From Abditibacteriaceae bacterium (lineage in GTDB: Bacteria > Armatimonadota > Abditibacteriia > Abditibacteriales > Abditibacteriaceae), in assembly GCA_031425655.1 (NCBI GenBank), contig JANPJS010000078.1, forward strand, positions 1 through 31,813: DNA of 31,813 nt, given 5' to 3'. The translations under genes and the position numbers were made by a program. Of the stretch, positions 11,492 to 26,515 are shown in pieces (position 1 is the first letter of the stretch; the number at the start of each line of letters is the position of its first letter). The notes beneath the pieces were generated by a model. The model saw only the letters and a program-made list of their open reading frames with translations, made no database searches and was not told the DNA's origin.

Positions 11492-12604
11492 TCAATCGCT
11501 GGCAATCGCCGTCACCCGATAATTTTGACTGCCTTCGATAAGCGCCGCCAACACCGCCGGCTTTTCCAGCGATGCGCAGCGAAACAGCGTGCCTTGCGGC
11601 GCTGCGTTGCGCGTCACTTGCGTCATACCCGGCATAGACACCAAGAATCGCTCGGCTTCGCTCGCCTGCTCCGGCGCAGCATCGTCGAACTGCACGGTGA
11701 TGGTTTGCGCCGGGAAACGCTTCAGCAACTCGGCGGGGAGTTCTTTCGCTACCGTCGCGCTTAAACTACCCAACGCCTTGCGCGCGGCTTGCGCTTTGGT
11801 CTGGCCGAAACCCTTTTCGCTCCAAGTTTGCGCGGTGAGAATTTCGCCGCTGTCGGCGCGAATCACACGCACGTTCGCCGTCGCGTTGTAGGAAATGATG
11901 CCTGCGTTGTCCTGCGAAAATTTCGCATCCACGCGCCCAGCCACCAAATGATTCGCCAGCAATCGCGTGCCGAGCGAGGCCAGTTCATTCGGAGGGCCGG
12001 AAACGGTGGCTTGCACCAAATTCGGCAACGGGCAGTTCGTCGCCACGAAATTCCAATCGTAGACGCGAAACTTCTGCTTGGTCAGCGCGCGTTGCACAGC
12101 GGTTTCAACCAATGGCGCGGCGGCGCGTTCGCCGTCCACGAATTCGGGCAACAAGGTGACGATAGAAAGATTCGGCAGCGCCGCCGCGCGAAACTGCGCC
12201 GCGAAATCCGTCTGCGTCTCTTTCAAACCCACTTCCAACGTATAACCGCCCGCCGCCTTGCTTTGCGAAATGACCGTCGCTTGAGAGGCGTTCATTTGCG
12301 CGGCGACGGAAGCCAACTGCGCGCCCCAAGTCCTCAACGGCGAGGGCACGCCGGGCGGCTGAAATCGCTGCGCCAAAGCGTAACGTATCGCGGCGCGTTG
12401 TGCGATTTCCAGCGAACCGGCTTTCACCGTAAGTTTGACGCGCACCAGATTGGCTCGCGTTGAAACTTTGTAAGACACGATGGCCGGTTGAGGCTGCGAA
12501 ATGCCACGCTGAACGTGAATCGTAACGTCTGCACAGACCATGCTTTGCAACACGGCAAGAATCGGCAGGAAAAAGAGGGCGGAAGTCCGGCGTTGAGCTT
12601 TCAT
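11492..12604 (-). CDS. Exported FlgT/CsgG-like alpha/beta domain protein
   Basis: Signal peptide; 'ANHLVAGRV...ATANVRVIRADSGEIL...GFG...AARKAL' resembles the FlgT-middle/CsgG fold; same operon direction as 10421-11467. Confidence 0.6.
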   Translation of the reverse strand: MKAQRRTSALFFLPILAVLQSMVCADVTIHVQRGISQPQPAIVSYKVSTRANLVRVKLTVKAGSLEIAQRAAIRYALAQRFQPPGVPSPLRTWGAQLASVAAQMNASQATVISQSKAAGGYTLEVGLKETQTDFAAQFRAAALPNLSIVTLLPEFVDGERAAAPLVETAVQRALTKQKFRVYDWNFVATNCPLPNLVQATVSGPPNELASLGTRLLANHLVAGRVDAKFSQDNAGIISYNATANVRVIRADSGEILTAQTWSEKGFGQTKAQAARKALGSLSATVAKELPAELLKRFPAQTITVQFDDAAPEQASEAERFLVSMPGMTQVTRNAAPQGTLFRCASLEKPAVLAALIEGSQNYRVTAIASD

Positions 12605-12713
12605 GGTGAGTCCAATTTACAGCCAACCGGCAACGAAATTAGTCGCATTCGACGCGAGGACACCGCAGCGGTTCAGAAAAGAATTGCCAACCAATGCGTC
12701 AGTTAAATTATTT

Positions 12714-12844
12714 GAGGGGTCGCAGAGTTTTTTCTGGGTTTCTCTCGTGCAATGACAAGGAGTTTTGGCTGATCCGAAAATCCGAGAATTTGGAGAAGGC
12801 CATTTTCCTTGTCAAATCAAGCGTGAAAAACTCCGCGACCCCTC
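12714..12844. mobile_element. MITE (131 bp) with terminal inverted repeats and a 9-bp target-site duplication
   Basis: TIRs GAGGGGTCGCAGAGTTTTT / AAAAACTCCGCGACCCCTC (18/19); direct repeat AAATTATTT at 12705-12713 and 12845-12853; inner inverted repeat TGACAAGGA/TCCTTGTCA. Confidence 0.85.
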
Positions 12845-12847
12845 AAA

Positions 12848-13873
12848 TTATTTAACCCGCCATAGTCGCACAGCTTTGGCGTAATTTACAGCCATTGTTT
12901 TGCCATCGGGAGAAAAGGCAAGCCACACCTGACTTCCAGATTCGTCCGAGCCGGGAGGATGAACGTCAGGCTCTGTGCCTTTAAGATTGAGCAGTAACTT
13001 GCCTGTTTGCACATCCCAAAATCGGACAGCATTGGCGTAGGTGCCGGTTACTAACCTAATGTTGTGGGGAGTAAAGGCAACCATCCACACAACATTAGGA
13101 TGTTTCAGGGTTAATGTCTGCTGACCGCGTCCTACGCTCCACAGCGTTACCAAGCCTTTGTGACTTCCGCGTGCGAGCAGTTTTCCATCTGGCGAGAAAG
13201 CCATGTTACCCGCTAGTTTGTCTTGCGTGAGCGTCCGTTTTGCTTTGCCATTTCGTATGTCATGCAACGTCACATAACCGAAACCACCAACAGCCAACGT
13301 CTCGCCATCAGGAGAAAAAGCAACTGACTCCACCGTATTATCGTCAACCGGCACTTGACTCCATTTCAACTTGCCGGTTTGCAAGTCCCACAATCGTAAC
13401 TCGCCTCTTGCAGACAGACCGGTTCCGCCGCCAACCGCTAACATCTTGCTGTCAGGCGAGAACGCAACCGAACTAACGACTTCGCCCTCGGATTGCCCAA
13501 TTAATGTGCGTAGCAACTTCCCGGATTGCACATTCCAGAGGCGCACCTTCCCTTTCATGTCGCCATTCGCTAACACTTTACCATTGGGCGAGAAGGCAAC
13601 GCAGGATACTATGCTGTTCAGGCGCAGAGTTCGGCGTTGCTGACCTGTTTCCACGTTCCATGTGCTTAAGACGCCGTATTCGGCATTGGCATTTGGGCCA
13701 GTCCATCTACCGCCACCAACGGCCAGGGTTTTACCGTCAGGCGAGAACGCAAGAGAAGACAAACCGTCGTTGCCATGCTGCAAAGTCCGCAACAGCGTCA
13801 CCTGTTGAGCATTTGCGTTCACCAGCCCGATGCCCAAGCACAACAAACACATCACCAGTTTTCTTTTCCTCAT
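12848..13873 (-). CDS. Secreted WD40-repeat (beta-propeller) protein
   Basis: About seven 'AFSPDGK.LA...LWD' repeats; signal peptide ANA-Q; GGAG RBS before ATG 13873. Confidence 0.9.
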   Translation of the reverse strand: MRKRKLVMCLLCLGIGLVNANAQQVTLLRTLQHGNDGLSSLAFSPDGKTLAVGGGRWTGPNANAEYGVLSTWNVETGQQRRTLRLNSIVSCVAFSPNGKVLANGDMKGKVRLWNVQSGKLLRTLIGQSEGEVVSSVAFSPDSKMLAVGGGTGLSARGELRLWDLQTGKLKWSQVPVDDNTVESVAFSPDGETLAVGGFGYVTLHDIRNGKAKRTLTQDKLAGNMAFSPDGKLLARGSHKGLVTLWSVGRGQQTLTLKHPNVVWMVAFTPHNIRLVTGTYANAVRFWDVQTGKLLLNLKGTEPDVHPPGSDESGSQVWLAFSPDGKTMAVNYAKAVRLWRVK

Positions 13874-15900: not shown

Positions 15901-15906
15901 ATGACC

Positions 15907-15990
15907 TTTTGAGTTTTGAGTTTTGAGTTTTAAATTTTGAGTTATCGAATCACAACTCAAAACTCAAAATTCACAACTCAAAACTTGAAA
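15907..15990. repeat. Inverted heptamer tandem repeats, about (TTTTGAG)x5 followed by (AACTCAA)x5
   Basis: Seen directly; the two arms are reverse complements; the array overlaps the Nif3 stop codon. Confidence 0.9.
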
Positions 15991-17098
15991 ACGGGTTGGT
16001 ATCCAAGCCACAAACTTCGACAGTCAGGCCGGGGATTATTTGCAAAACATCGCGCAGCATCGGGACGGCGGCGCGTTCGGTGGCGGTGTGCGTGGCATCA
16101 ATGAGAGCAAGCCCCAATGCCTGCGCTTTGAGCGCGTCGTGGTGTTTGATATCGCCGGTCACCAGACAATCGCAAGCGCCGCGCGCTGCGGCCTCAATAT
16201 AACTCGCGCCGCTGCCGGGCACGCACGCCACACGCCGAATTTCGTTTTTGCCGGCGCGCACAAGGCGCAGATTCGGCGCCGATAAATTGGCCTGCACTTG
16301 CGCTGCGAAAGCGTCAAAAGGCAGCCCGGTTTCCAATTCGCCGACACGCGCCGAGCCGTAAGCGTTGGTCGCGTTGCGCAGAGGAATCACATCGTAGGCG
16401 ACTTCTTCGTAAGGATGCGCGCTTTTCATCACCGCGATGACTTCTTCGCTTTGCGCTTCGGGCACAATAATTTCGAGGCGCCATTCGTCCACGTCTTCGC
16501 GTTGTCCAAGCGCGCCAACGTGCGGATTGGCGCCCGCCAAAGGCCGAAAAGTGCCGCGTCCCGGAGTGCGAAAACTGGCTTCGTCGTAAAGCCCGATTTG
16601 CCCGGCGCCAGCCTGCCACATCGCCGATTGAACAGCATCCAGCGCTTGCGGCGGCACAAAAACCACGATTTTGCACAGCGATTCGCGGCCCGACGGCGCC
16701 AAAACCTGCACGTTTTGCAAACCGAGTTGATGCGCCAGAGCATCGCCCAACGCGCCCGGCGCTTTGACCGACAAAGGCGGCGCGTTATCGAGCGCGGTGT
16801 GCATCGCCACGAGGTTTAGATTTTGCGTGATGCAGCGCGCGGCCAATCGCGCGGTGTGGTCGCGAAAATTGAGCGAATCGAGAGGGCGGAACAGCAAAGG
16901 ATGATAAACGACAAGCGCGTCGGCGCGAAGATTTTGTGCGTCGTCTAAGGTGGCGTCCGTCGCTTCGTGGGCCACTACGGCCCGCGCGACCGGCGCGTTT
17001 TCGTCGCCGATTTGCAGGCCGACTTTGTCCCAGTTTTCGGCGCGGCGTAAAGGAAACGCAGCGTCCAATTCTCGAATTAAGTCACGAAGCAAAATCAT
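15971..17098 (-). CDS. Nif3-like dinuclear metal centre protein (YqfO type, with PII-like insert)
   Basis: 'AENWDKVGLQIGD', 'YHPLLF', 'HTALD', 'AGAGQIGLYD', 'HPYEEVAYD', 'TGDIKHH', 'HTATE'. Confidence 0.95.
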   Translation of the reverse strand: MILLRDLIRELDAAFPLRRAENWDKVGLQIGDENAPVARAVVAHEATDATLDDAQNLRADALVVYHPLLFRPLDSLNFRDHTARLAARCITQNLNLVAMHTALDNAPPLSVKAPGALGDALAHQLGLQNVQVLAPSGRESLCKIVVFVPPQALDAVQSAMWQAGAGQIGLYDEASFRTPGRGTFRPLAGANPHVGALGQREDVDEWRLEIIVPEAQSEEVIAVMKSAHPYEEVAYDVIPLRNATNAYGSARVGELETGLPFDAFAAQVQANLSAPNLRLVRAGKNEIRRVACVPGSGASYIEAAARGACDCLVTGDIKHHDALKAQALGLALIDATHTATERAAVPMLRDVLQIIPGLTVEVCGLDTNPFSSFEL

Positions 17099-17971: not shown

Positions 17972-18718
17972 ATGAAGCGCCGCGCCTTTACTCTGTTTGA
18001 ATTGCTTGTCGCCGTGGGTTTAATTGGCGTTATCTCCGCGCTTTTGTGGCCGGTTTTCGCCCGTGCGCGCGAAAACGCCCGCAAATCCGACTGTCAGCGC
18101 AATCTCAAGAAAATCGCGCTCGGCGTGAAGCTATACATGAACGATTGGGACGAGCGTTATCCTCTCGTCTTCGTCACCAACGCGCCCGGCCCGGCGCCGC
18201 CTTACGGCTGGGCCGACGCCTTAGAGCCTTACATCAATAATCCGATGGTTTACCAATGCCCCTCGGATACCAACGAAGCCAACCCATCGCCGATAAAAAA
18301 GGGTTACAGCGATTATTGGTATAACGCTAACTTGGTATATCGCCGGGTATATCGCCTGCGCGACCGGCCCGTTTTTGTCGGCGCCAATTCATCCGTGCTT
18401 GGCAGTTCGTCGCAAACCGTTGTCGCCGGCGATGGTGGCAATAAAAATGGCAGCGGCGGTCACAATTCGACTTACAACCAGTGTGGCGACGGCAAAAGCC
18501 TCAGCGAGAGAAACCAAGTTTGCGCGCCGTCAAAATCCCTCACCGTTGCTTATCCCGCCGGGCAAATTCATCTTGGCGGCGCTAATTTCGCTTTCGCCGA
18601 CGGCCATGTCAAGTGGTTTCGCGGCAGTAGCGCGGGGCAGAGCAAGCAAATAATGAGTAATCGTGCAACGCAATCCAACATCGGCCACAAATACACGTTT
18701 TCGCTGCTGAATCGCTAA
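17972..18718 (+). CDS. Prepilin-type N-terminal cleavage / DUF1559 / H-X9-DG domain protein (tandem paralog)
   Basis: AFTLFE; 'PVFARARENAR'; 'YQCPSD'; 'HLGGANFAFADGHVKW'. Confidence 0.93.
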   Translation: MKRRAFTLFELLVAVGLIGVISALLWPVFARARENARKSDCQRNLKKIALGVKLYMNDWDERYPLVFVTNAPGPAPPYGWADALEPYINNPMVYQCPSDTNEANPSPIKKGYSDYWYNANLVYRRVYRLRDRPVFVGANSSVLGSSSQTVVAGDGGNKNGSGGHNSTYNQCGDGKSLSERNQVCAPSKSLTVAYPAGQIHLGGANFAFADGHVKWFRGSSAGQSKQIMSNRATQSNIGHKYTFSLLNR

Positions 18719-18733
18719 ATAAAGGCGCAACGA

Positions 18734-18742
18734 TGTTACACT
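18734..18742 (+). promoter_or_regulatory. Extended -10 element TGtTACACT
   Basis: 16 nt upstream of ATG 18759, with GAGG in between. Confidence 0.4.
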
Positions 18743-18758
18743 GCGTGAGGAACCAGCA

Positions 18759-19205
18759 ATGAGCAATTCGACAGAGCAAGAATCTCAAGATAAAAACACT
18801 GGTGCAAACCGCGGCAAGTCTGCTGAACCGGGAACTGAGCCATCGAGCTGGCCCGCGTTTGCATGGAAAATCGTGTCAACTCCCACGGTTTTAGCCTCTA
18901 TGTGCTTTGTGTTTATGGGTTATTGTGTCGCCTGTAAAATGTTCGATCTGAACCCTTTTGATCCGCGAGGACAAAAATCGACTCCGACCCCAAAGCCACC
19001 CAACGTTCGTAGTAAAAAAACCAATCCCAATCCGACAAATCCCTCTCCACCTAAGGACTTTCCAGATTTTACACGCATTAATTTTTCGCAGATGTTCGGC
19101 AAGAATTTGGAGCCAGTCGAAGTGAAGATAACGACTCCTGAGGGCCATGTTATTGTCATAAAGGCGCAATCTAAGAACCCACGCAGCAAATCTCACCACC
19201 CTTGA
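18759..19205 (+). CDS. Hypothetical single-TM protein with Pro/Asn-rich linker
   Basis: RBS and ATG; hydrophobic segment VLASMCFVFMGYCVAC; lower GC; no recognisable family. Confidence 0.6.
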   Translation: MSNSTEQESQDKNTGANRGKSAEPGTEPSSWPAFAWKIVSTPTVLASMCFVFMGYCVACKMFDLNPFDPRGQKSTPTPKPPNVRSKKTNPNPTNPSPPKDFPDFTRINFSQMFGKNLEPVEVKITTPEGHVIVIKAQSKNPRSKSHHP

Positions 19206-19468
19206 ACGGTAAAGCGTATGCTGTTTCTAAGCAGCCGTTCTTAAACAAATTTCCCGCAGTCAGCCAGAAAAACCTCGAAAAGGACCTTATTTGTAACGCT
19301 TTTGTTACGCGCTACCTACGATAATGCTCAAAGGGCATTTCGGATGGGAGCATTTTGCTTCACTACCCGAAATCAAATATGGCATTCCCCTAAATCTTGT
19401 GTCTGTTAACAACACGGTTAAGTAGCCGCAGACCAAAACAAAGGGGCACAAAAGGGAAGGAGACTACG

Positions 19469-22400
19469 ATGACACGCGCCAAAAGAGAACCGCGGCGCAC
19501 TCTGCGAGTGCGCCCAATGTGGATTGTGGCCGGGATATTGTTGTTAACCGGAGTCCCGGCCTGTAAGAGATCCAACGGAACCGAAGTTCCACCAATTACG
19601 CCCGTCGCCATCCAGAGCGGCGGAGAGCCACTAACGCCGGAGATGCAGGCGATATTTGATGCTGAGCGTGCGCGCATGAAGGATGTGCTACCGCGTGAGC
19701 GTCAAAATCAGCGCAAACTTCTTCTGACTCGCCAATTGCCTCCGCGTGCTTTAGGGCACCGGTTCTGGACGCGTTTTCGACAAGTTTACCCCTACCATAT
19801 TCAGGTGGTGTCCGTGACGCCGCGCGCCATCGGAGGGCGTTTCACGTTCCTTGTTGCCGAACCGCCGCCACACGTTGCATTGCCCGACTTGTTGGAGGCA
19901 GTTGGGCCGTTGTTAGCCGGTTACGCAGTGAAAAAGCAGCGCATCGGTAACGATGGTTGGGTCAAAGATGTTGTGCTCGAAGCGCGAGACGACGGGACTG
20001 CGGCGGAAATCCTTAGTCGTTTAAATGCACTTCTCTTTCATACTTCTTACAAGGCATATCCTCTGCCCTTGCCGCCGAGCGCGCCGCGCCGTGGCAAATG
20101 GAAACTCGACTTGAACGTTTCGGCCCGCGAAATCAAGAAGTGGGTGTTGGACGAACAAGCGAAATTCCTCCCAATTGAGGGCAGCGATTCTGTAACGGCT
20201 GAGGGAATCTTCCAGCGCGGAGAATCACAAGTCCTCATCTGTCCTGAGAAAGGACTTGTCGGATGGTGGATACCGAAAAGCCAAAGCGTTGCCGCCAACG
20301 AGGTTCCGGCGCGACAATTCGCACTCGATTCCGATTTAGTATTAGGCGCGATCACTCGTCCTTCAGGTGTCTTGGTGATAGGCCGCCAGCGCGTTGTGCC
20401 TTTGGATGTGCTGCCCCCCTTGCGCGGGGAAACGCTGGCTTTATTGGGCGCTGTGCAAGACGACCACCTGGCGCAAAGTTACGAACGCAACCACCTCTTC
20501 GCAGGCCGCATTGACGAGCAGCACGACTGGGCGCCTATCCTCCTATCTCCTGAACTGCGCGACACGGAATACGGAAGCCTGCTCAACATCACCGACCAAT
20601 TGCTCAAAGGATGGTCAAACAACGGCGAAACGCGCTACGTGCGCTTTGATTATCCACGTCCGGCCAAATGGCCATTTAAAAAGCCGCTGCCTGAGCAACT
20701 CAAAGCCGACCAGTTGACCTATAACTGGAATACTAGGGGCACAGGTTATATGGTGAAGGAGGGAGATGGTAGCGTTTTCGCTCTCAACCGTAGCGGCGCT
20801 CTGCCTGTCAGTTACATTCCCAAGGGTCAAGAAGATAAACCTTCAACGAACGTGCTGATAGCGGAAACTAACGCTTATAACTACTTTGCTGGCTTGAACG
20901 ACCCGAATTTGGTTCGCGTGGTGCAATACGCAGCGATCTACCAAATCTTCCGCCACTTCCCCGTCGCACAACCAGCTCAGGCGCTGTCCGCCGATCCTGT
21001 GCCGGATACACGTCTTGAAGAGATGACATCGGCTTTGATGTCGCAACTGCGTCATCTCACCCCTGCGCAGCGTCGCCGTGTAGCCGGTCGGTTAGGCAAA
21101 ACAGTAGCGGCTACGCTCGGCAGCGCGGATTCCGTAGACAGCATCGTAGCCGAACTGATGCCTCGCTATCGTCGGGAATTCGCCCAGAGACTGCAAGAAG
21201 CGGGAATATCGCGCGGCACATCGGAGTTCGATCAACGCTTGGAAATTTTGCTGAAATTGGCGCGACAAGATTTAAGGGTTAGTGTCCGGGAAGCGCTGAG
21301 CAAGGATCGCCAGAAGATTGCGCAACGCATCGAAAAGCAACTGCAACTCGTGGCGCAACAGGGAGAAGACGCTGGAGCGAACAATGAGGATGAAACGCTG
21401 CGAAAGATCATTCTCAGTCTCTACGCCGCTTCTGAAAAGCTGCCGCAGCGCTATGCCGCCGCAATAGATCAACGCGCTAAAGGTTGGATTCACACGCCGG
21501 TGGTTGTGCTGTCGTGGAACATTGGTTCGTCAAGCTCATCTATTGGCGGGCATAACTTGGACGCGAAGATTACAGGTTTCAGATTGGACAACAATGTGCC
21601 CAAGGGCAAACCCATCGTTAAAGACGGTGAAATTGTGCTCAATCCGGCGGATAGTGACAAAGCCGGGCGTTTAGCGTTCGCCGCCGGGCGCCATGCTGGG
21701 GAACCTGACCTGCCGGCCATGCTAACAAGATTAGCTAAGCCCAGCAATACCCCACTGCGCCAATCGTATGCGGCGCTACGTTTTCCTGAAAAAGCACCTG
21801 CCTCTTCCGATTGGGGGATAGTGTCTTTCCCTCGTGGTGAGACCGGCAAGGGCGTTGGTTGGGCCAAGCAGACTACCTTCGATTCGCTTTTACGGGAGGA
21901 GTTGCTTGTGTTCCGCCAGAACGCACCCGATGCCGTTCTAATCGCCCGCCGGAATGATGGAACATTTCAAGTCGCGCATGGCGAGCCTCCCAGTTGGTTT
22001 AAAGCTCGCACTTACGAAGATGCTGTGGATTCACTCATCCACCTGCGGCGTCATGGCGAAGCGGGCGACAAATCCCTGAATATCAAACTGGTGGGCTTCG
22101 AGCCAAAGGAAATGAGGAGTTTTCTTCGTTCGTGTGAAGGGCGCAGCAAAGCCGAGAAACTCCCCCCGGAGATTGAGGCCATTGTTGGCAACAAAAGGGC
22201 GAAGCCCGTCTTACACGAAATAGAAGGGCTGTCGTATAAGAAGGCTGAGATTAAATTCAACGACGCTGTGTTCAGACTACCCGACGGTAGCCAAGTGCGC
22301 ACCGGGGAGGTCACAATTCCCGCCGCGAATGGCCGCACGGTGAAAGGCACGCTCAAGTTAATCTTTCACAGAACAGCTCCACGGCATTTCATTGACGCCA

Positions 22401-22654
22401 TCACGCAGCGTATTCACAAAATTTTCAATCGCTTGAAAGGCAGCGAGGTGGGTAGGAGCGGTGGCACGTTCCACACGCAGTTCAACCATGAGATGAAATT
22501 GTTAAAAGAGCAGACCGGTCGAAGTTTGCAGGATGTAGAACTGTATTTGGCTACGCAAGGAGGCGACGTCTACTTGGCGCGTCAGGAGGCTGACGATGCC
22601 GAACGCCGCAGCGGTGCCAGGCGCAAATGGGGAACTGTGCATCGCACCGCGTGA
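19469..22654 (+). CDS. Large putative lipoprotein of unknown function (1061 aa), possibly DUF1598-related core
   Basis: AAGGAG RBS before ATG 19469; basic N-region, hydrophobic helix and VPA-C32 lipobox-like site; long uninterrupted ORF. Confidence 0.75.
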   Translation: MTRAKREPRRTLRVRPMWIVAGILLLTGVPACKRSNGTEVPPITPVAIQSGGEPLTPEMQAIFDAERARMKDVLPRERQNQRKLLLTRQLPPRALGHRFWTRFRQVYPYHIQVVSVTPRAIGGRFTFLVAEPPPHVALPDLLEAVGPLLAGYAVKKQRIGNDGWVKDVVLEARDDGTAAEILSRLNALLFHTSYKAYPLPLPPSAPRRGKWKLDLNVSAREIKKWVLDEQAKFLPIEGSDSVTAEGIFQRGESQVLICPEKGLVGWWIPKSQSVAANEVPARQFALDSDLVLGAITRPSGVLVIGRQRVVPLDVLPPLRGETLALLGAVQDDHLAQSYERNHLFAGRIDEQHDWAPILLSPELRDTEYGSLLNITDQLLKGWSNNGETRYVRFDYPRPAKWPFKKPLPEQLKADQLTYNWNTRGTGYMVKEGDGSVFALNRSGALPVSYIPKGQEDKPSTNVLIAETNAYNYFAGLNDPNLVRVVQYAAIYQIFRHFPVAQPAQALSADPVPDTRLEEMTSALMSQLRHLTPAQRRRVAGRLGKTVAATLGSADSVDSIVAELMPRYRREFAQRLQEAGISRGTSEFDQRLEILLKLARQDLRVSVREALSKDRQKIAQRIEKQLQLVAQQGEDAGANNEDETLRKIILSLYAASEKLPQRYAAAIDQRAKGWIHTPVVVLSWNIGSSSSSIGGHNLDAKITGFRLDNNVPKGKPIVKDGEIVLNPADSDKAGRLAFAAGRHAGEPDLPAMLTRLAKPSNTPLRQSYAALRFPEKAPASSDWGIVSFPRGETGKGVGWAKQTTFDSLLREELLVFRQNAPDAVLIARRNDGTFQVAHGEPPSWFKARTYEDAVDSLIHLRRHGEAGDKSLNIKLVGFEPKEMRSFLRSCEGRSKAEKLPPEIEAIVGNKRAKPVLHEIEGLSYKKAEIKFNDAVFRLPDGSQVRTGEVTIPAANGRTVKGTLKLIFHRTAPRHFIDAITQRIHKIFNRLKGSEVGRSGGTFHTQFNHEMKLLKEQTGRSLQDVELYLATQGGDVYLARQEADDAERRSGARRKWGTVHRTA

Positions 22655-23603
22655 CTGCGCACTCGCTGTGACTGTGCCCCTCACACGCGAAGAGTTCATC
22701 GCTGATCTTTCCCGTCCTAAAGACAAGGACTACGCTCGCCACATTGCGAGTCAAAGAGGGGGCGAGTTTTGGCAGGGCTTTTCCGGCGACTTTTTCTGGG
22801 GAAACGTTTATGGCGGTAGCGCCCGTTATATCGCCACGGTGTGTGAAGCGGTTGAAAAGCAGGGCGTGACGGTGCAAAAAGCCGTCAAATTCTGTGAATT
22901 CGCGGAATTGGTGAGAAAATTTTCTGTTGTGACTCTTGTGGCGCACTGGAAATTCACTAAGTTCAAGACTGAGGATATTTGTGATGCTCCGGCTTTGTGG
23001 CGCGCTTTGCGTGCGCCACAAAGCCAAGTGCAAGAAGAAACTCAAAAGGCCGTTGAAGAACGCAATGCAGGATTGTTGAAACACAAAACATTGGAGCTGA
23101 ACGGTGAGGAGTTAGCCGAAACCCTGTCTAAGACGCTCAATGCAATCATGGCCGAGACCCACACGCTTTATAGAAATGCAAAGCCGGGTGAAAAGGGCGA
23201 GGTGGTAGTGGTCACTCAAAGTCAAGCCGCGCTACAGCGTTTGACACGTCCAACTCTTGAGGAAGCGTTTCCCGGTTTGCTGTGTCCTGCGCGCGCCGTG
23301 GAATTTTCCGACGGTTTGCGCACAATAAGTGAAGTGGTGGAAGCGGTGCCAGAAAATTACACGGGTGTGCTCGATATGACGGTCTGCAATTCAGTGCTCT
23401 TAGGCGCGGCCATCAAAAAGCATCGCCGCAACTGCCAGGTGCTCATAAATCGTTATCCAACAGAATTGGATATTCGTCTTCTGCCATATAAGATAGCGAT
23501 TGACCGTTTGGCTCAGCATCCGGCTCCCTTTGCCAATACGCTTATGGACGTAACCGACGCCATTCGTGACGACACGAGAAAAAAATCTCAAGAAAGAGAA
23601 TAA
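22596..23603 (+). CDS. Putative divergent caspase/CHAT-like (clan CD) cysteine peptidase
   Basis: AGGAGG RBS at 22584-22589; VVTLVAH117W, VEFSDG and VLDMTVC264NS occur in CHAT motif order (function inferred). Confidence 0.6.
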   Translation: MPNAAAVPGANGELCIAPRDCALAVTVPLTREEFIADLSRPKDKDYARHIASQRGGEFWQGFSGDFFWGNVYGGSARYIATVCEAVEKQGVTVQKAVKFCEFAELVRKFSVVTLVAHWKFTKFKTEDICDAPALWRALRAPQSQVQEETQKAVEERNAGLLKHKTLELNGEELAETLSKTLNAIMAETHTLYRNAKPGEKGEVVVVTQSQAALQRLTRPTLEEAFPGLLCPARAVEFSDGLRTISEVVEAVPENYTGVLDMTVCNSVLLGAAIKKHRRNCQVLINRYPTELDIRLLPYKIAIDRLAQHPAPFANTLMDVTDAIRDDTRKKSQERE

Positions 23604-23607
23604 CATC

Positions 23608-24114
23608 ATGACACTGCAAGAGGTTTTGAACAAACACAATCGGCACGCCTTGGCCTTTCATGCTGAAGGCGGCAGTGACGAGACCCAAGACACTCCATCG
23701 CCGCCCGTGGCTAAATTGGACCGCGAAGGGTTCCGGCGCGACTTAGAAGTAGCCAGACAACGCACAGAAAGCGATTTCCGTGATTGCAAACGAATGCTCG
23801 TCTGGCCATTCTTGTTGAGCATAACATTCTTAATCATTTTAGTCGCCGTGGCTGTCTTGGCGTTATTGCGGCCAGATGCAATGCAGGCCTATAAGATTTT
23901 TGGCGCCGTAATGGCCATAGTGAGTTCTGCGCTCAGTGGACTTGGCCTATTAAAGGCAAACGACCAAGTGTCTTATATGCAGCGTTTATGGCGAGAAAAA
24001 GAAGCCACTGAAATGCTGTTATCCCTTGCCGTTAATCTGAATGATGACGCGGCAATCGAGCGTATCATATTTTTGATGCAGAAGCGGCTGGAAAGTGCAC
24101 TGGTCTCTTCATAA
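23608..24114 (+). CDS. Small two-TM membrane protein (possible effector)
   Basis: ATG 4 nt after the previous stop; two hydrophobic helices followed by an amphipathic helical tail. Confidence 0.7.
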   Translation: MTLQEVLNKHNRHALAFHAEGGSDETQDTPSPPVAKLDREGFRRDLEVARQRTESDFRDCKRMLVWPFLLSITFLIILVAVAVLALLRPDAMQAYKIFGAVMAIVSSALSGLGLLKANDQVSYMQRLWREKEATEMLLSLAVNLNDDAAIERIIFLMQKRLESALVSS

Positions 24115-24137
24115 AATGAAGTAGAAAAGCAAGGCGC

Positions 24138-24257
24138 GTCAAGTATTCTCAGAATACTTGACTCTGTGAAGCGTTTGAAAGCAGAACCCCAGAACCCCTT
24201 AGTTAAGGAGGCCTGGGGTTCTGTCGTGTTAAGTTTCTGGCTTGACTCTTCTGAGAA
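24138..24257. repeat. Cluster of palindromes between convergent genes (terminator and/or degenerate MITE)
   Basis: GTCAAGTATTCT-c-AGAATACTTGAC (24138-24162); CAGAACCCCAG/CTGGGGTTCTG (24182-24223); TTCTCAGAA/TTCTGAGAA (24146/24249). Confidence 0.65.
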
Positions 24258-24270
24258 CCGCTCTATAAAA

Positions 24271-25098
24271 TCATTTAACAGGCGCCGGAGTGAGCGATTG
24301 AGCGAATTTCAGCGAGGCATGGACGTCCATTTTGTCGTTGGTCGTGGTCAAACTGGTGACTTGAACCACAAAAGGCCATTTTTTCTCTTTATCGAAGACG
24401 TAAACCGGGTTCATGTGCTCGAACAGCTTGCTGATGTTCAGCGATAGGCCCGACACTTTTTCAAACGAAAAATGCTCGTCAACAACCCAGATTTCGTTGG
24501 TATTGCGGACTTCCACGCGCGCCGTCAGGTGGAAAGGCACCGGCAAGCCGATTAAAGGGATTCGTTTTTTGCCGCTCATGCGAATCTGACCGTCCTTCAT
24601 CGTCAAATCGGCTTCTTTGATGTCAGGGTATTTCTCGACGAGCAGGCTTTCCAGCGCATCCGCCGCGACGGTGAGATGGGCCGTGCCGGCGCCCGATTGC
24701 ACCACGCGCAACTGGTTCTTCTTTTTGAGCGCATCGAAATCGTAAGCGATGTCGTCCACGATGAGTTCGGCGCTTTCCACCTTCGTTTTGTCGAAGGTAA
24801 AATTACGCAGCAGTAGCTCGAAATGGCCGACTGTGCCGAGATTTTTGGCTTTCTCGCCGCCCGCCGGTTCCAGAGGCACGCCGTCTATCGCGCCCAAATC
24901 GGACATTTCCAAACGCACGCTGCGGAAGCGGCCTTTGATAACGTCGCGCCCGCGCTTGCCTTCGACGGTGGTTTTGATCTGAGCGGCGGGATAACGCTTT
25001 TGCAGCGCGTCTTTCATGATTTGCGCCGCTTTATCCGGCGTTGCCACCGCGTTGAAGCCGAAGAACCCGCCTAAAACGGCGGCTAACAAAAGTCCCAT
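24271..25098 (-). CDS. LmeA/DUF2993-like exported protein
   Basis: N-terminal anchor; 'DVIKGRFRSVRLE', 'LTVAADALESL', 'MNPVYVFD' resemble DUF2993 and the gene at 3150-3890. Confidence 0.65.
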   Translation of the reverse strand: MGLLLAAVLGGFFGFNAVATPDKAAQIMKDALQKRYPAAQIKTTVEGKRGRDVIKGRFRSVRLEMSDLGAIDGVPLEPAGGEKAKNLGTVGHFELLLRNFTFDKTKVESAELIVDDIAYDFDALKKKNQLRVVQSGAGTAHLTVAADALESLLVEKYPDIKEADLTMKDGQIRMSGKKRIPLIGLPVPFHLTARVEVRNTNEIWVVDEHFSFEKVSGLSLNISKLFEHMNPVYVFDKEKKWPFVVQVTSLTTTNDKMDVHASLKFAQSLTPAPVK

Positions 25099-25174
25099 GA
25101 TTCCTCCAAAAGCAGAGCGCGTTCAAGTCGCCCTGCACAATTCCACAGCGTTCTGGAAACAAGCGGTGTGGCCG

Positions 25175-26515
25175 TTATTTCCAGATCAGCACGTTGCCGT
25201 CTATGTCGCCGCTGACAAGTTCACCGGCGCCGGGGCCAAAAGCCAGAGCCGAAACTTCACCGCGCTGGCCGCTCAGACTGCGCCGTTCGTCGCTTTCGAG
25301 ATGCCACAGCGCCAGATTATTGCCCTCGCCGGCGCTGGCGAGCATCTGACCGTCGGACGAAAATGCTAAGGCTTTGACCACGCCCAAGTTGGCCGATAAC
25401 GAACGCGGCGCGCTTTTTCCGGTTAAATCCCAGAGCCACACCGCTTGATAATTAGTCGAGGCCAAGCGCGTGCCGTCCGGTGAGAAAACCAGCGAGGTAA
25501 CGTAGCCGAGATTTTCCACGACCACGCCGCGATCTTCGCAGTTTTGCAAATCCCACAGACGCACTTTTTGGTTGGCGCCACCGGTTGCGATGCGGTTGGC
25601 CGTCCACGAAAACGCCACGCTGCGCACCGCGCCGGTGACCGCCAAATTGCAAGTGCGATCTAAGGCGCGCGTGGCCAGATTCCAGAATTTCAGCGTTCCG
25701 GCGCTGTCGGCGCTGATTAAAGTGCTGCCGTCCGGCGAAATCTGCATCGCAACGATGGGCTGCGCGTGCGCTTCGCCCGACGGCTTGCCGATTAAAACGC
25801 CGTCTTTGACGCTCCACAGCAAGATGGATTTATCTTCGCTGGCCGTCGCCAGCAGCGCATCATCCGGCGAAAACGCCAGCGCATTGACGCCGGCCCAGTG
25901 ACCGGTAAACGTGCGCAAAGCCATGCCGCTTTGAACATCCCAGAGTTTCACGTCGCCCACGGGCACACCATTTTTTTCGGACGGACGCCAACTGCCCGTC
26001 GCCAGCCATTTGCCGTCGTGCGAATAAGCGACGGCGCGCACGCCCCGAACATGGTTGTGGCGCATTCGAGGAATCCACGAAGGCGTGTAAGGCGGCCCGG
26101 TGCGCGGCGTCGGGCGCGGCGTCGCCGTCGGCATCGGCGCGATGGGTAACGGCAACACAACGGGCGTCGGCGCAGGCGTCGGACGCGGCGTGGGCATCGG
26201 CGTGGGACGAAAAGCCGGCTGGGGAGGCGGAATCTTCACCGAAACCGGCGTGGCACGCGGATAAGAGCGCTGGAACGGCTTCGGTGCGGGCCGTCGAAAC
26301 GGTCGTGGCGCGACGGAACGCGGCTTCTTCGCTTTGGGACGCGGCTTCGCTTTGGGCGGCGACTTCGGTTTGGGTGCCGGTTTCCGCACCGCAGGCGCCA
26401 TAATGGTGTCGTCTATCGCGCCAACCCTGCCGGCTGCCGTTAACGCGCAAAATAAGACGGCTCCCCGGAAAACGGCGCGCTGACTGCGGCCTGAAAAAAT
26501 GCACTTGCGTTTCAT
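25175..26515 (-). CDS. Secreted WD40-repeat protein with Pro/Lys/Arg-rich N-terminal linker
   Basis: Signal peptide; PTP/PKP-rich linker; about seven WD40 repeats. Confidence 0.9.
   Translation of the reverse strand: MKRKCIFSGRSQRAVFRGAVLFCALTAAGRVGAIDDTIMAPAVRKPAPKPKSPPKAKPRPKAKKPRSVAPRPFRRPAPKPFQRSYPRATPVSVKIPPPQPAFRPTPMPTPRPTPAPTPVVLPLPIAPMPTATPRPTPRTGPPYTPSWIPRMRHNHVRGVRAVAYSHDGKWLATGSWRPSEKNGVPVGDVKLWDVQSGMALRTFTGHWAGVNALAFSPDDALLATASEDKSILLWSVKDGVLIGKPSGEAHAQPIVAMQISPDGSTLISADSAGTLKFWNLATRALDRTCNLAVTGAVRSVAFSWTANRIATGGANQKVRLWDLQNCEDRGVVVENLGYVTSLVFSPDGTRLASTNYQAVWLWDLTGKSAPRSLSANLGVVKALAFSSDGQMLASAGEGNNLALWHLESDERRSLSGQRGEVSALAFGPGAGELVSGDIDGNVLIWK

Follow-up and report, generated by a model that had tools for sequence, protein, structure and literature searches.

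A candidate three-gene module linking an exported protein, a caspase-type protease and exchangeable effectors

The caspase-type defence systems considered here for comparison are activated by nucleotide signals or by sensors in the cytoplasm. In the gasdermin locus of Runella, the protease requires a Leu-Gly pair at P1-P1', located in an exposed loop ahead of an inhibitory peptide of 21 residues, according to the available text of its source (bioRxiv 10.1101/2021.06.07.447441). The CHAT domain of Myxococcus xanthus DdvA is characterized in the accessible part of another report as periplasmic, fused to TPR repeats, and with an incomplete dyad (PMC11506125). The conflict systems of Kaur et al. 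are found in complex soil and sediment bacteria, as is the module analyzed here, as far as the available text of those papers goes (PMC7159879, PMC8195603). This module is a group of three genes in a stretch of 31,813 nucleotides (nt), referred to as the window, from an Abditibacteriaceae bacterium (GCA_031425655.1, contig JANPJS010000078.1, positions 1-31,813, forward strand). The three genes are a real, rare, and widely transferred module that is apparently undescribed, and it is probably a mobile, three-part conflict system in which activation by a protease releases the effector.

Gene order and distribution

Gene 1 (19469..22654, plus strand) is an open reading frame (ORF) for a large exported protein of 1061 amino acids (aa), with AAGGAG at 19457-19462. 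Gene 2 (22596..23603, plus strand) encodes a 335-aa protein without an export signal, recognized as a CHAT/caspase-fold protease from its fold and catalytic dyad. Gene 3 (23608..24114, plus strand) encodes a 168-aa two-transmembrane (2-TM) protein, recognized from its hydrophobic segments. A previous interpretation made without database searches (the sequence-only reading) described three tightly packed genes, and this holds: genes 1 and 2 overlap by 59 nt, AGGAGG lies inside gene 1 at 22584-22589, and the gap between genes 2 and 3 is 4 nt. A single contig from run X1 spans 18050-25300 with zero differences, and X1 may itself be the source of the DNA; runs X2 and X3 covered short pieces of the region and nothing more, and no RNA data set was listed as containing it.

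There are 117 gene 1 homologs besides the window copy, none with a Pfam domain listed. An alignment of 72 gene 1 sequences, taken from the 118 homolog rows, was used to retrieve 69 genome loci and, out of 144 metagenome loci, the 80 best, for a total of 149. The protease gene is directly behind gene 1 in 120 of the 125 loci with at least 1 kb after gene 1. The exceptions are a locus in which gene 1 is cut short and the protease is missing but the 2-TM gene is kept (L024), two in which gene 1 lacks its C-terminal part and is followed by an unrelated gene (L029 and L135), one in which gene 1 is split with nothing recognized after it (L117), and one with an ordinary Pfam CHAT protein (L061). In 117 loci the sequence continues for 450 nt or more behind the protease. 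The protease is short in 96 of these, and a 2-TM gene is present in 91 of the 96; 40 proteins from the third position served as seeds for the 2-TM profile and match by construction. None of the three outcomes that the sequence-only reading had named as refuting it was observed: the genes are co-located across phyla, the middle protein has a predicted caspase/CHAT fold, and no described system matched in the libraries and papers searched. A 57-row quick tree spans 11 phylum-level groups and places the window gene nearest to Acidobacteriota rows, without strong support, on an end branch of 0.52. Cultured hosts include Sorangium cellulosum So ce26 (L009), Paraburkholderia (L042, L043, and L045), Caballeronia (L068), and Roseovarius (L065).

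The module is rare where it was sought directly. It was absent from 60 relatives of the host, including 3 of the same genus, and from 400 genomes sampled per phylum in two phyla, with the phylum sampling returning seed genomes alone. Plasmids and viral contigs yielded no match, and in genomes of the same genus the surrounding gene order differs. The distances of the three genes correlate (Spearman, 0.47-0.58), which was considered as evidence of binding and rejected, as it reflects shared inheritance instead.

None of the three genes matched Pfam, NCBIfam, PADLOC (2023), PHROGs, or PDB sequence profiles, and the lack of a PADLOC component match is what the sequence-only reading had proposed as a sign of novelty. 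The ESM Atlas returned nothing for them, a blank that shows neither novelty nor absence. No description of the module was found in a literature search that had most subscription papers and bioRxiv/eLife supplements outside its scope.

The protease, its effectors, and a shared motif

Structure prediction assigned gene 2 the caspase-haemoglobinase fold (clan CD, caspase/CHAT), with a helical insert at about residues 120-225. His117 (codon 22944-22946) comes after strand 111-116 and Cys264 (codon 23385-23387) after strand 258-263; these are the caspase positions, at which a core strand ends. Both residues are kept in 114 of 116 homologs in one set and 139 of 143 in another. The predicted fold and this conservation agree with the dyad first proposed from the sequence and suggest that gene 2 encodes a cytoplasmic cysteine protease of the CHAT/caspase type. 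Pfam CHAT (PF12770) and Peptidase_C14 matched 0 of 76 protease members at E 0.01, the PADLOC CHAT models also matched none of 76, and the module proteases are a subfamily separate from Pfam CHAT/Peptidase_C14. No long protease fusions (605-2000 aa) were found, which is weak evidence, and a single-sequence genome scan with the protease gave no match. The protease His is replaced by Gln in L105 and L122, and a tubulin-like gene cluster is divergent upstream of gene 1 in these loci and in L109. In L056, L057, L060, L094, P0181, and P0246, one open frame covers both the protease and the 2-TM protein, and the second Met is often still present; this may represent either fusion or a lost stop.

Gene 3 has the two hydrophobic segments expected of the 2-TM protein that the sequence-only reading proposed. 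Lys plus Arg counts of 2-TM proteins are 3.6 before, 1.2 between, and 2.6 after the helices, a charge distribution that suggests an N-in/C-in topology with a short outer loop. The 93 2-TM proteins follow a common plan: a short helix at the N terminus and a variable loop, then a coiled helix followed by two membrane helices, and a pair of helices at the C terminus. The window protein is 12-33% identical to 36 relatives. Gene 3 had no match to gasdermin in Pfam, NCBIfam, or PADLOC; Pfam SLATT gave no row among 37 2-TM members, and PADLOC gave single-member rows at E 0.003-0.01. Two 2-TM proteins (L017:7587-8363 and L020) have an extra C-terminal domain of about 100 aa without a Pfam match, which is reminiscent of effector-associated domains.

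A Gly in the variable loop is aligned in all 93 2-TM proteins, and the residue preceding it is Leu (48), Phe (17), Ala (12), Met (10), Thr (3), Gly (2), or Gln (1). The motif [LFM]G is present in 75 of the 93 loops versus a mean of 17.6 in 1000 shuffles (maximum, 30), a comparison that is not a probability because the letters were picked after the alignment was viewed and the sequences are related. In the window, the predicted cleavage point is between Gly21 and Gly22 of gene 3 (23668..23673, plus strand), where HAEG-GSDET corresponds to LGSDET and AGSDET of relatives.

The same motif accompanies other effectors. In 20 loci, mostly from Bacteroidales, the protease is fused to a beta-rich immunoglobulin-like (Ig-like) domain, a label given from the alignment without a family hit, and a DUF4062 domain, identified in the 4 fusions that were tested (Pfam E, 1e-15 to 1e-19). 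Leu-Gly is just before the Ig-like domain in 20 of 20 of these loci, 19 in register, whereas the background for Leu-Gly is 5.3% of 9-residue windows. In three loci without a 2-TM gene (L050, L059, and L062), a separate protein anchored in the membrane carries Leu-Gly, the Ig-like domain just described, and TIR_2. The TIR forms occur at three places on the quick tree, and the Leu-Gly-Ig-TIR cassette may have had a single origin. In L061, the ordinary CHAT protein (11681-13369) that replaces the family protease has an HLGDE linker before a C-terminal domain without a family assignment. No third gene was recognized in L063 or L087. Order variants were also observed, with the effector convergent or upstream (L023:11560-12342, minus strand; L059:12186-13256, minus strand; L050:6533-7708, plus strand) or the protease fusion upstream of a gene 1 copy (L048).

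The exchange of effectors provides independent support for the loop motif as a putative cut site. Considered with the Leu-Gly precedent from Runella, the sharing of the motif among exchanged effectors leads us to infer that it is the site cut by the module protease. The sequence-only suggestion that the protease acts on the third gene product therefore gains specific support from the motif and the swaps, with the cut itself a prediction.

The exported partner and possible functions of the module

The gene 1 product, modeled with a predicted local distance difference test score (pLDDT) of 86.8 and a predicted template modeling score (pTM) of 0.86, begins with a hydrophobic export signal ending at Cys32, with VPAC as a possible atypical lipobox (19469..19564, plus strand). 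An N-terminal export or anchor segment is present in 113 of 125 gene 1 homologs, versus a hydrophobic segment in 15 of 615 internal windows. A lipobox is present in about 20 of those 113, with LSGC, FSGC, or LTSC in several close homologs of the window copy, and 12 of 20 homologs in the Bacteroidales-type group are anchored by a zinc ribbon plus a membrane helix. The designation of gene 1 as a lipoprotein is too narrow. The export signal indicates that the protein lies outside the inner membrane, and there is no further hydrophobic segment beyond the N-terminal one.

The conserved core, about residues 200-760 (20066..21748, plus strand), has invariant QSYER, DWAP, EYG, DQxLKxW, NWNT, and GGH in the alignment and carries a variable helical insert at about residues 510-670. 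Fold searches gave no match for the core. A MACPF/gasdermin-like fold was not among the gene 1 fold matches in a search with the whole 1061-aa model that barely probed the core. Foldseek with the gene 1 and protease models returned nothing usable; the lone viral row at E 1.8e-5 has a TM-score of 0.16 and a root mean square deviation of 32. Residues 802-909 (21872..22195, plus strand) form a small alpha/beta lobe of the actin/RNase-H-like type that also weakly resembles the TolR periplasmic domain. A resemblance of the core to DUF1598 was not supported, as hmmsearch and hhalign comparisons with 30 DUF1598 proteins scored within shuffled controls; the literature search found no paper naming DUF1598. 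A DUF1598 protein fused to TPR-like repeats is present in a planctomycete-phylum genome (L163), and gene 1 of L061 has a weak peptidoglycan-binding match (E 5e-4) below the cut-off.

The order of the genes, the protease fold and dyad, the shared motif, the exchange of effectors, and the export of gene 1 are supported by computation. In the mechanism that we favor, gene 2 would cut gene 3 at the hydrophobic-Gly bond, some 20 residues from the N terminus in a cytoplasmic loop that is exposed. Loss of the short N-terminal helix would activate the 2-TM protein, most likely turning it into a pore or depolarizer of the inner membrane, with death or arrest of the cell as the result. In lineages with other effectors, cleavage at this site would release the Ig-like and TIR-type domains, either from the protease or from an anchor in the membrane. 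Gene 1, the obligate partner upstream, would most likely report envelope attack, a more speculative part of the scheme, with its signal passing via membrane proteins or with gene 1 meeting the protease only once the inner membrane or export fails. A fuller version, which we put forward only tentatively, is a pyroptosis-like pathway in which a new-fold sensor outside the inner membrane guards the envelope or export and activates a cytoplasmic caspase across or through the membrane, and a portable Leu-Gly site arms interchangeable effectors that include a new two-helix pore family.

Several points weigh against effector release by the protease, in addition to the limits of the shuffle comparison given above. 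Gappy loops such as these, which hold 2.4 Gly each, are places where aligners stack Gly. The window copy has Gly rather than Leu at P1, as in 2 of 93 2-TM proteins. The loci include near-duplicates, and because all were fetched via gene 1, protease copies without gene 1 would escape; in the sole reverse check, 6 of 14 protease homologs were on a contig equal in length to that of a gene 1 homolog. The exported gene 1 has no second hydrophobic segment and the protease has no signal, an arrangement for which the proposed activation does not account. A complex prediction for the protease with gene 1 residues 786-1046 scored 0.00, which weighs neither way. PADLOC matched 18 of 106 nearest neighbors, several of them generic helix-turn-helix, helicase, or kinase proteins or the module's own TIR proteins, and outside Bacteroidales the neighbors vary and few are defence genes. 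The sensor role and the phage defence suggested by the sequence-only reading are putative.

Thus, the check for nearby defence islands that the sequence-only reading proposed gave no good signal except in Bacteroidales, in which TIR, RyR, RCK, PrsW, trypsin, and sigma-like genes cluster around the module (L030, L037, L040, L041, L064, L106, L132, L134, L140, L144, and L147); these clusters may be a larger signaling or conflict locus. These neighborhoods bear on the strongest alternative, envelope signaling without killing, in which gene 1 senses an outer cue and the protease clips the 2-TM protein as a regulatory step, like that of anti-sigma proteolysis, with an output in gene expression or metabolism. 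The export of gene 1, the ordinary neighborhoods elsewhere, the genes like those for extracytoplasmic function sigma factors and the RyR, RCK, and PrsW genes beside the Bacteroidales version, and the precedent of DdvA, described in the available text as a CHAT-fold membrane anti-sigma factor (PMC11506125), are consistent with this possibility. However, no regulator or fourth gene is conserved outside Bacteroidales (921 neighbor ORFs clustered), the third gene is swapped for TIR-type domains, and the distribution is extremely patchy, making signaling alone rather improbable.

We consider it unlikely that gene 1 is a secreted carrier that brings the protease and effector to neighboring cells, even though it is large and exported with an unmatched fold and a variable helical insert and is tightly coupled to gene 2. 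The protease and effector lack export signals, there is no immunity-like fourth gene, and some gene 1 homologs are anchored. Equally doubtful is that the 2-TM protein is a brake or adaptor whose Leu-Gly loop tethers the protease as a pseudo-substrate until the freed protease cuts host proteins. The variable P1 residue, the in-frame protease-2-TM ORFs of L056, L057, L060, and L094, and the description of Thoeris type IV as TIR plus caspase in its available text would fit such a role, but the motif also precedes TIR-type domains in loci without a 2-TM gene, and L024 retains its 2-TM gene after loss of the protease. That the family is functional and the window copy is decaying, as Gly at P1, the low identity of its 2-TM protein, and its end branch might suggest, is scarcely credible given three intact ORFs with the dyad and with ribosome-binding sites for genes 1 and 2, and the same Gly-Gly form in L082.

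The surroundings of the genes are less distinctive than was first thought. The sequence-only reading described an operon of low GC content, but operon GC is 53.6% versus 56.7% for the genome, a value this low occurs in 6.4% of genome windows of equal size, and its 60-nt lines have a median of 55%, with 22% of lines within 42-50%. The reading as a low-GC island is therefore weak; GC at third codon positions alone is clearly lower, 0.53-0.58 in the module genes compared with 0.64-0.70 in six flanking genes. The palindrome cluster at the end of the operon is stable (24110-24280; z, -4.7; 0 of 200 shuffles equally stable), with two hairpins (24138-24162 and 24182-24223) between gene 3 and a convergent LmeA-like gene, and is a possible terminator. 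However, the stretch 24116-24270 matches four other contigs of the same genome (C128, C162, C244, and C298), indicating a dispersed repeat that is not specific to the module, and a promoter/terminator scan was at chance level. A second, REP-like intergenic palindromic repeat with TTTTGAG/CTCAAAA units (15901-15995) has 272 blastn hits in the genome and also matches in relatives. Upstream of the module is a proline-rich orphan ORF of 148 aa (18759-19205, plus strand; 47% GC) with one hydrophobic segment and no homolog in its own genome or the fetched loci.

Comparison with described systems

In the module, which occurs in at least 11 phylum-level groups, a caspase-type protease is coupled to an exported protein whose fold is unmatched, and the analysis points to exact residues, His117, Cys264, and the hydrophobic-Gly bond. 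If the proposed mechanism is true, it would represent an envelope-sensing entry into bacterial programmed cell death. Its alpha-helical membrane effectors, unlocked by a protease, would form a new class, and its TIR effector would be one that cleavage sets free.

The comparisons that follow are with the available text of each source. SAVED-CHAT (8tl0) and Csx29/Craspase (7zoq and 7y9x) share the fold with the module protease and nothing more, at about 10% identity, and no SAVED, TPR, or Cas partner recurs among the 921 clustered and 106 scanned neighbors. MoxR, vWA, STAND, and GTPase genes are not recurrent in the module either. DdvA of the DdvA-DdvS pair likewise shares the fold alone, whereas in the module the protease has a full dyad, carries no signal, and is a protein of its own, and a sigma factor is absent from most loci (PMC11506125). 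Thoeris type IV combines TIR and caspase-like domains in one system, as do the TIR variants of the module, but there the TIR signal is upstream of the caspase, whereas in the module TIR is behind the predicted cut site, so that the order looks reversed (bioRxiv 10.1101/2024.10.24.620036). Most module loci, unlike Thoeris type IV, have no TIR. The systems of Kaur et al. also combine a constant core with interchangeable effectors (TIR, caspase, and 2TM), but neither an exported component like gene 1 nor a module of this kind is described in the available text (PMC7159879, PMC8195603).

The gasdermin locus of Runella, like the module, places a caspase-like protease next to a membrane effector. 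The Leu-Gly loop of the gasdermin is beside 21 C-terminal residues, whereas that of the module family follows about 21 N-terminal residues and is Gly-Gly in the window copy. The Runella effector is a gasdermin, and that of the module is a two-helix membrane protein of 130-170 aa or an Ig-like plus TIR protein. The module protease, unlike that of the gasdermin locus, stands alone as a domain, carries a helical insert, and lacks any repeat or NTPase sensor, and the exported 1000-aa partner has no counterpart in gasdermin loci as they are described in the available text. Therefore, the module may work like gasdermin-protease loci, yet it is not a member of that group because its effector is of another kind and nothing there corresponds to its exported partner.
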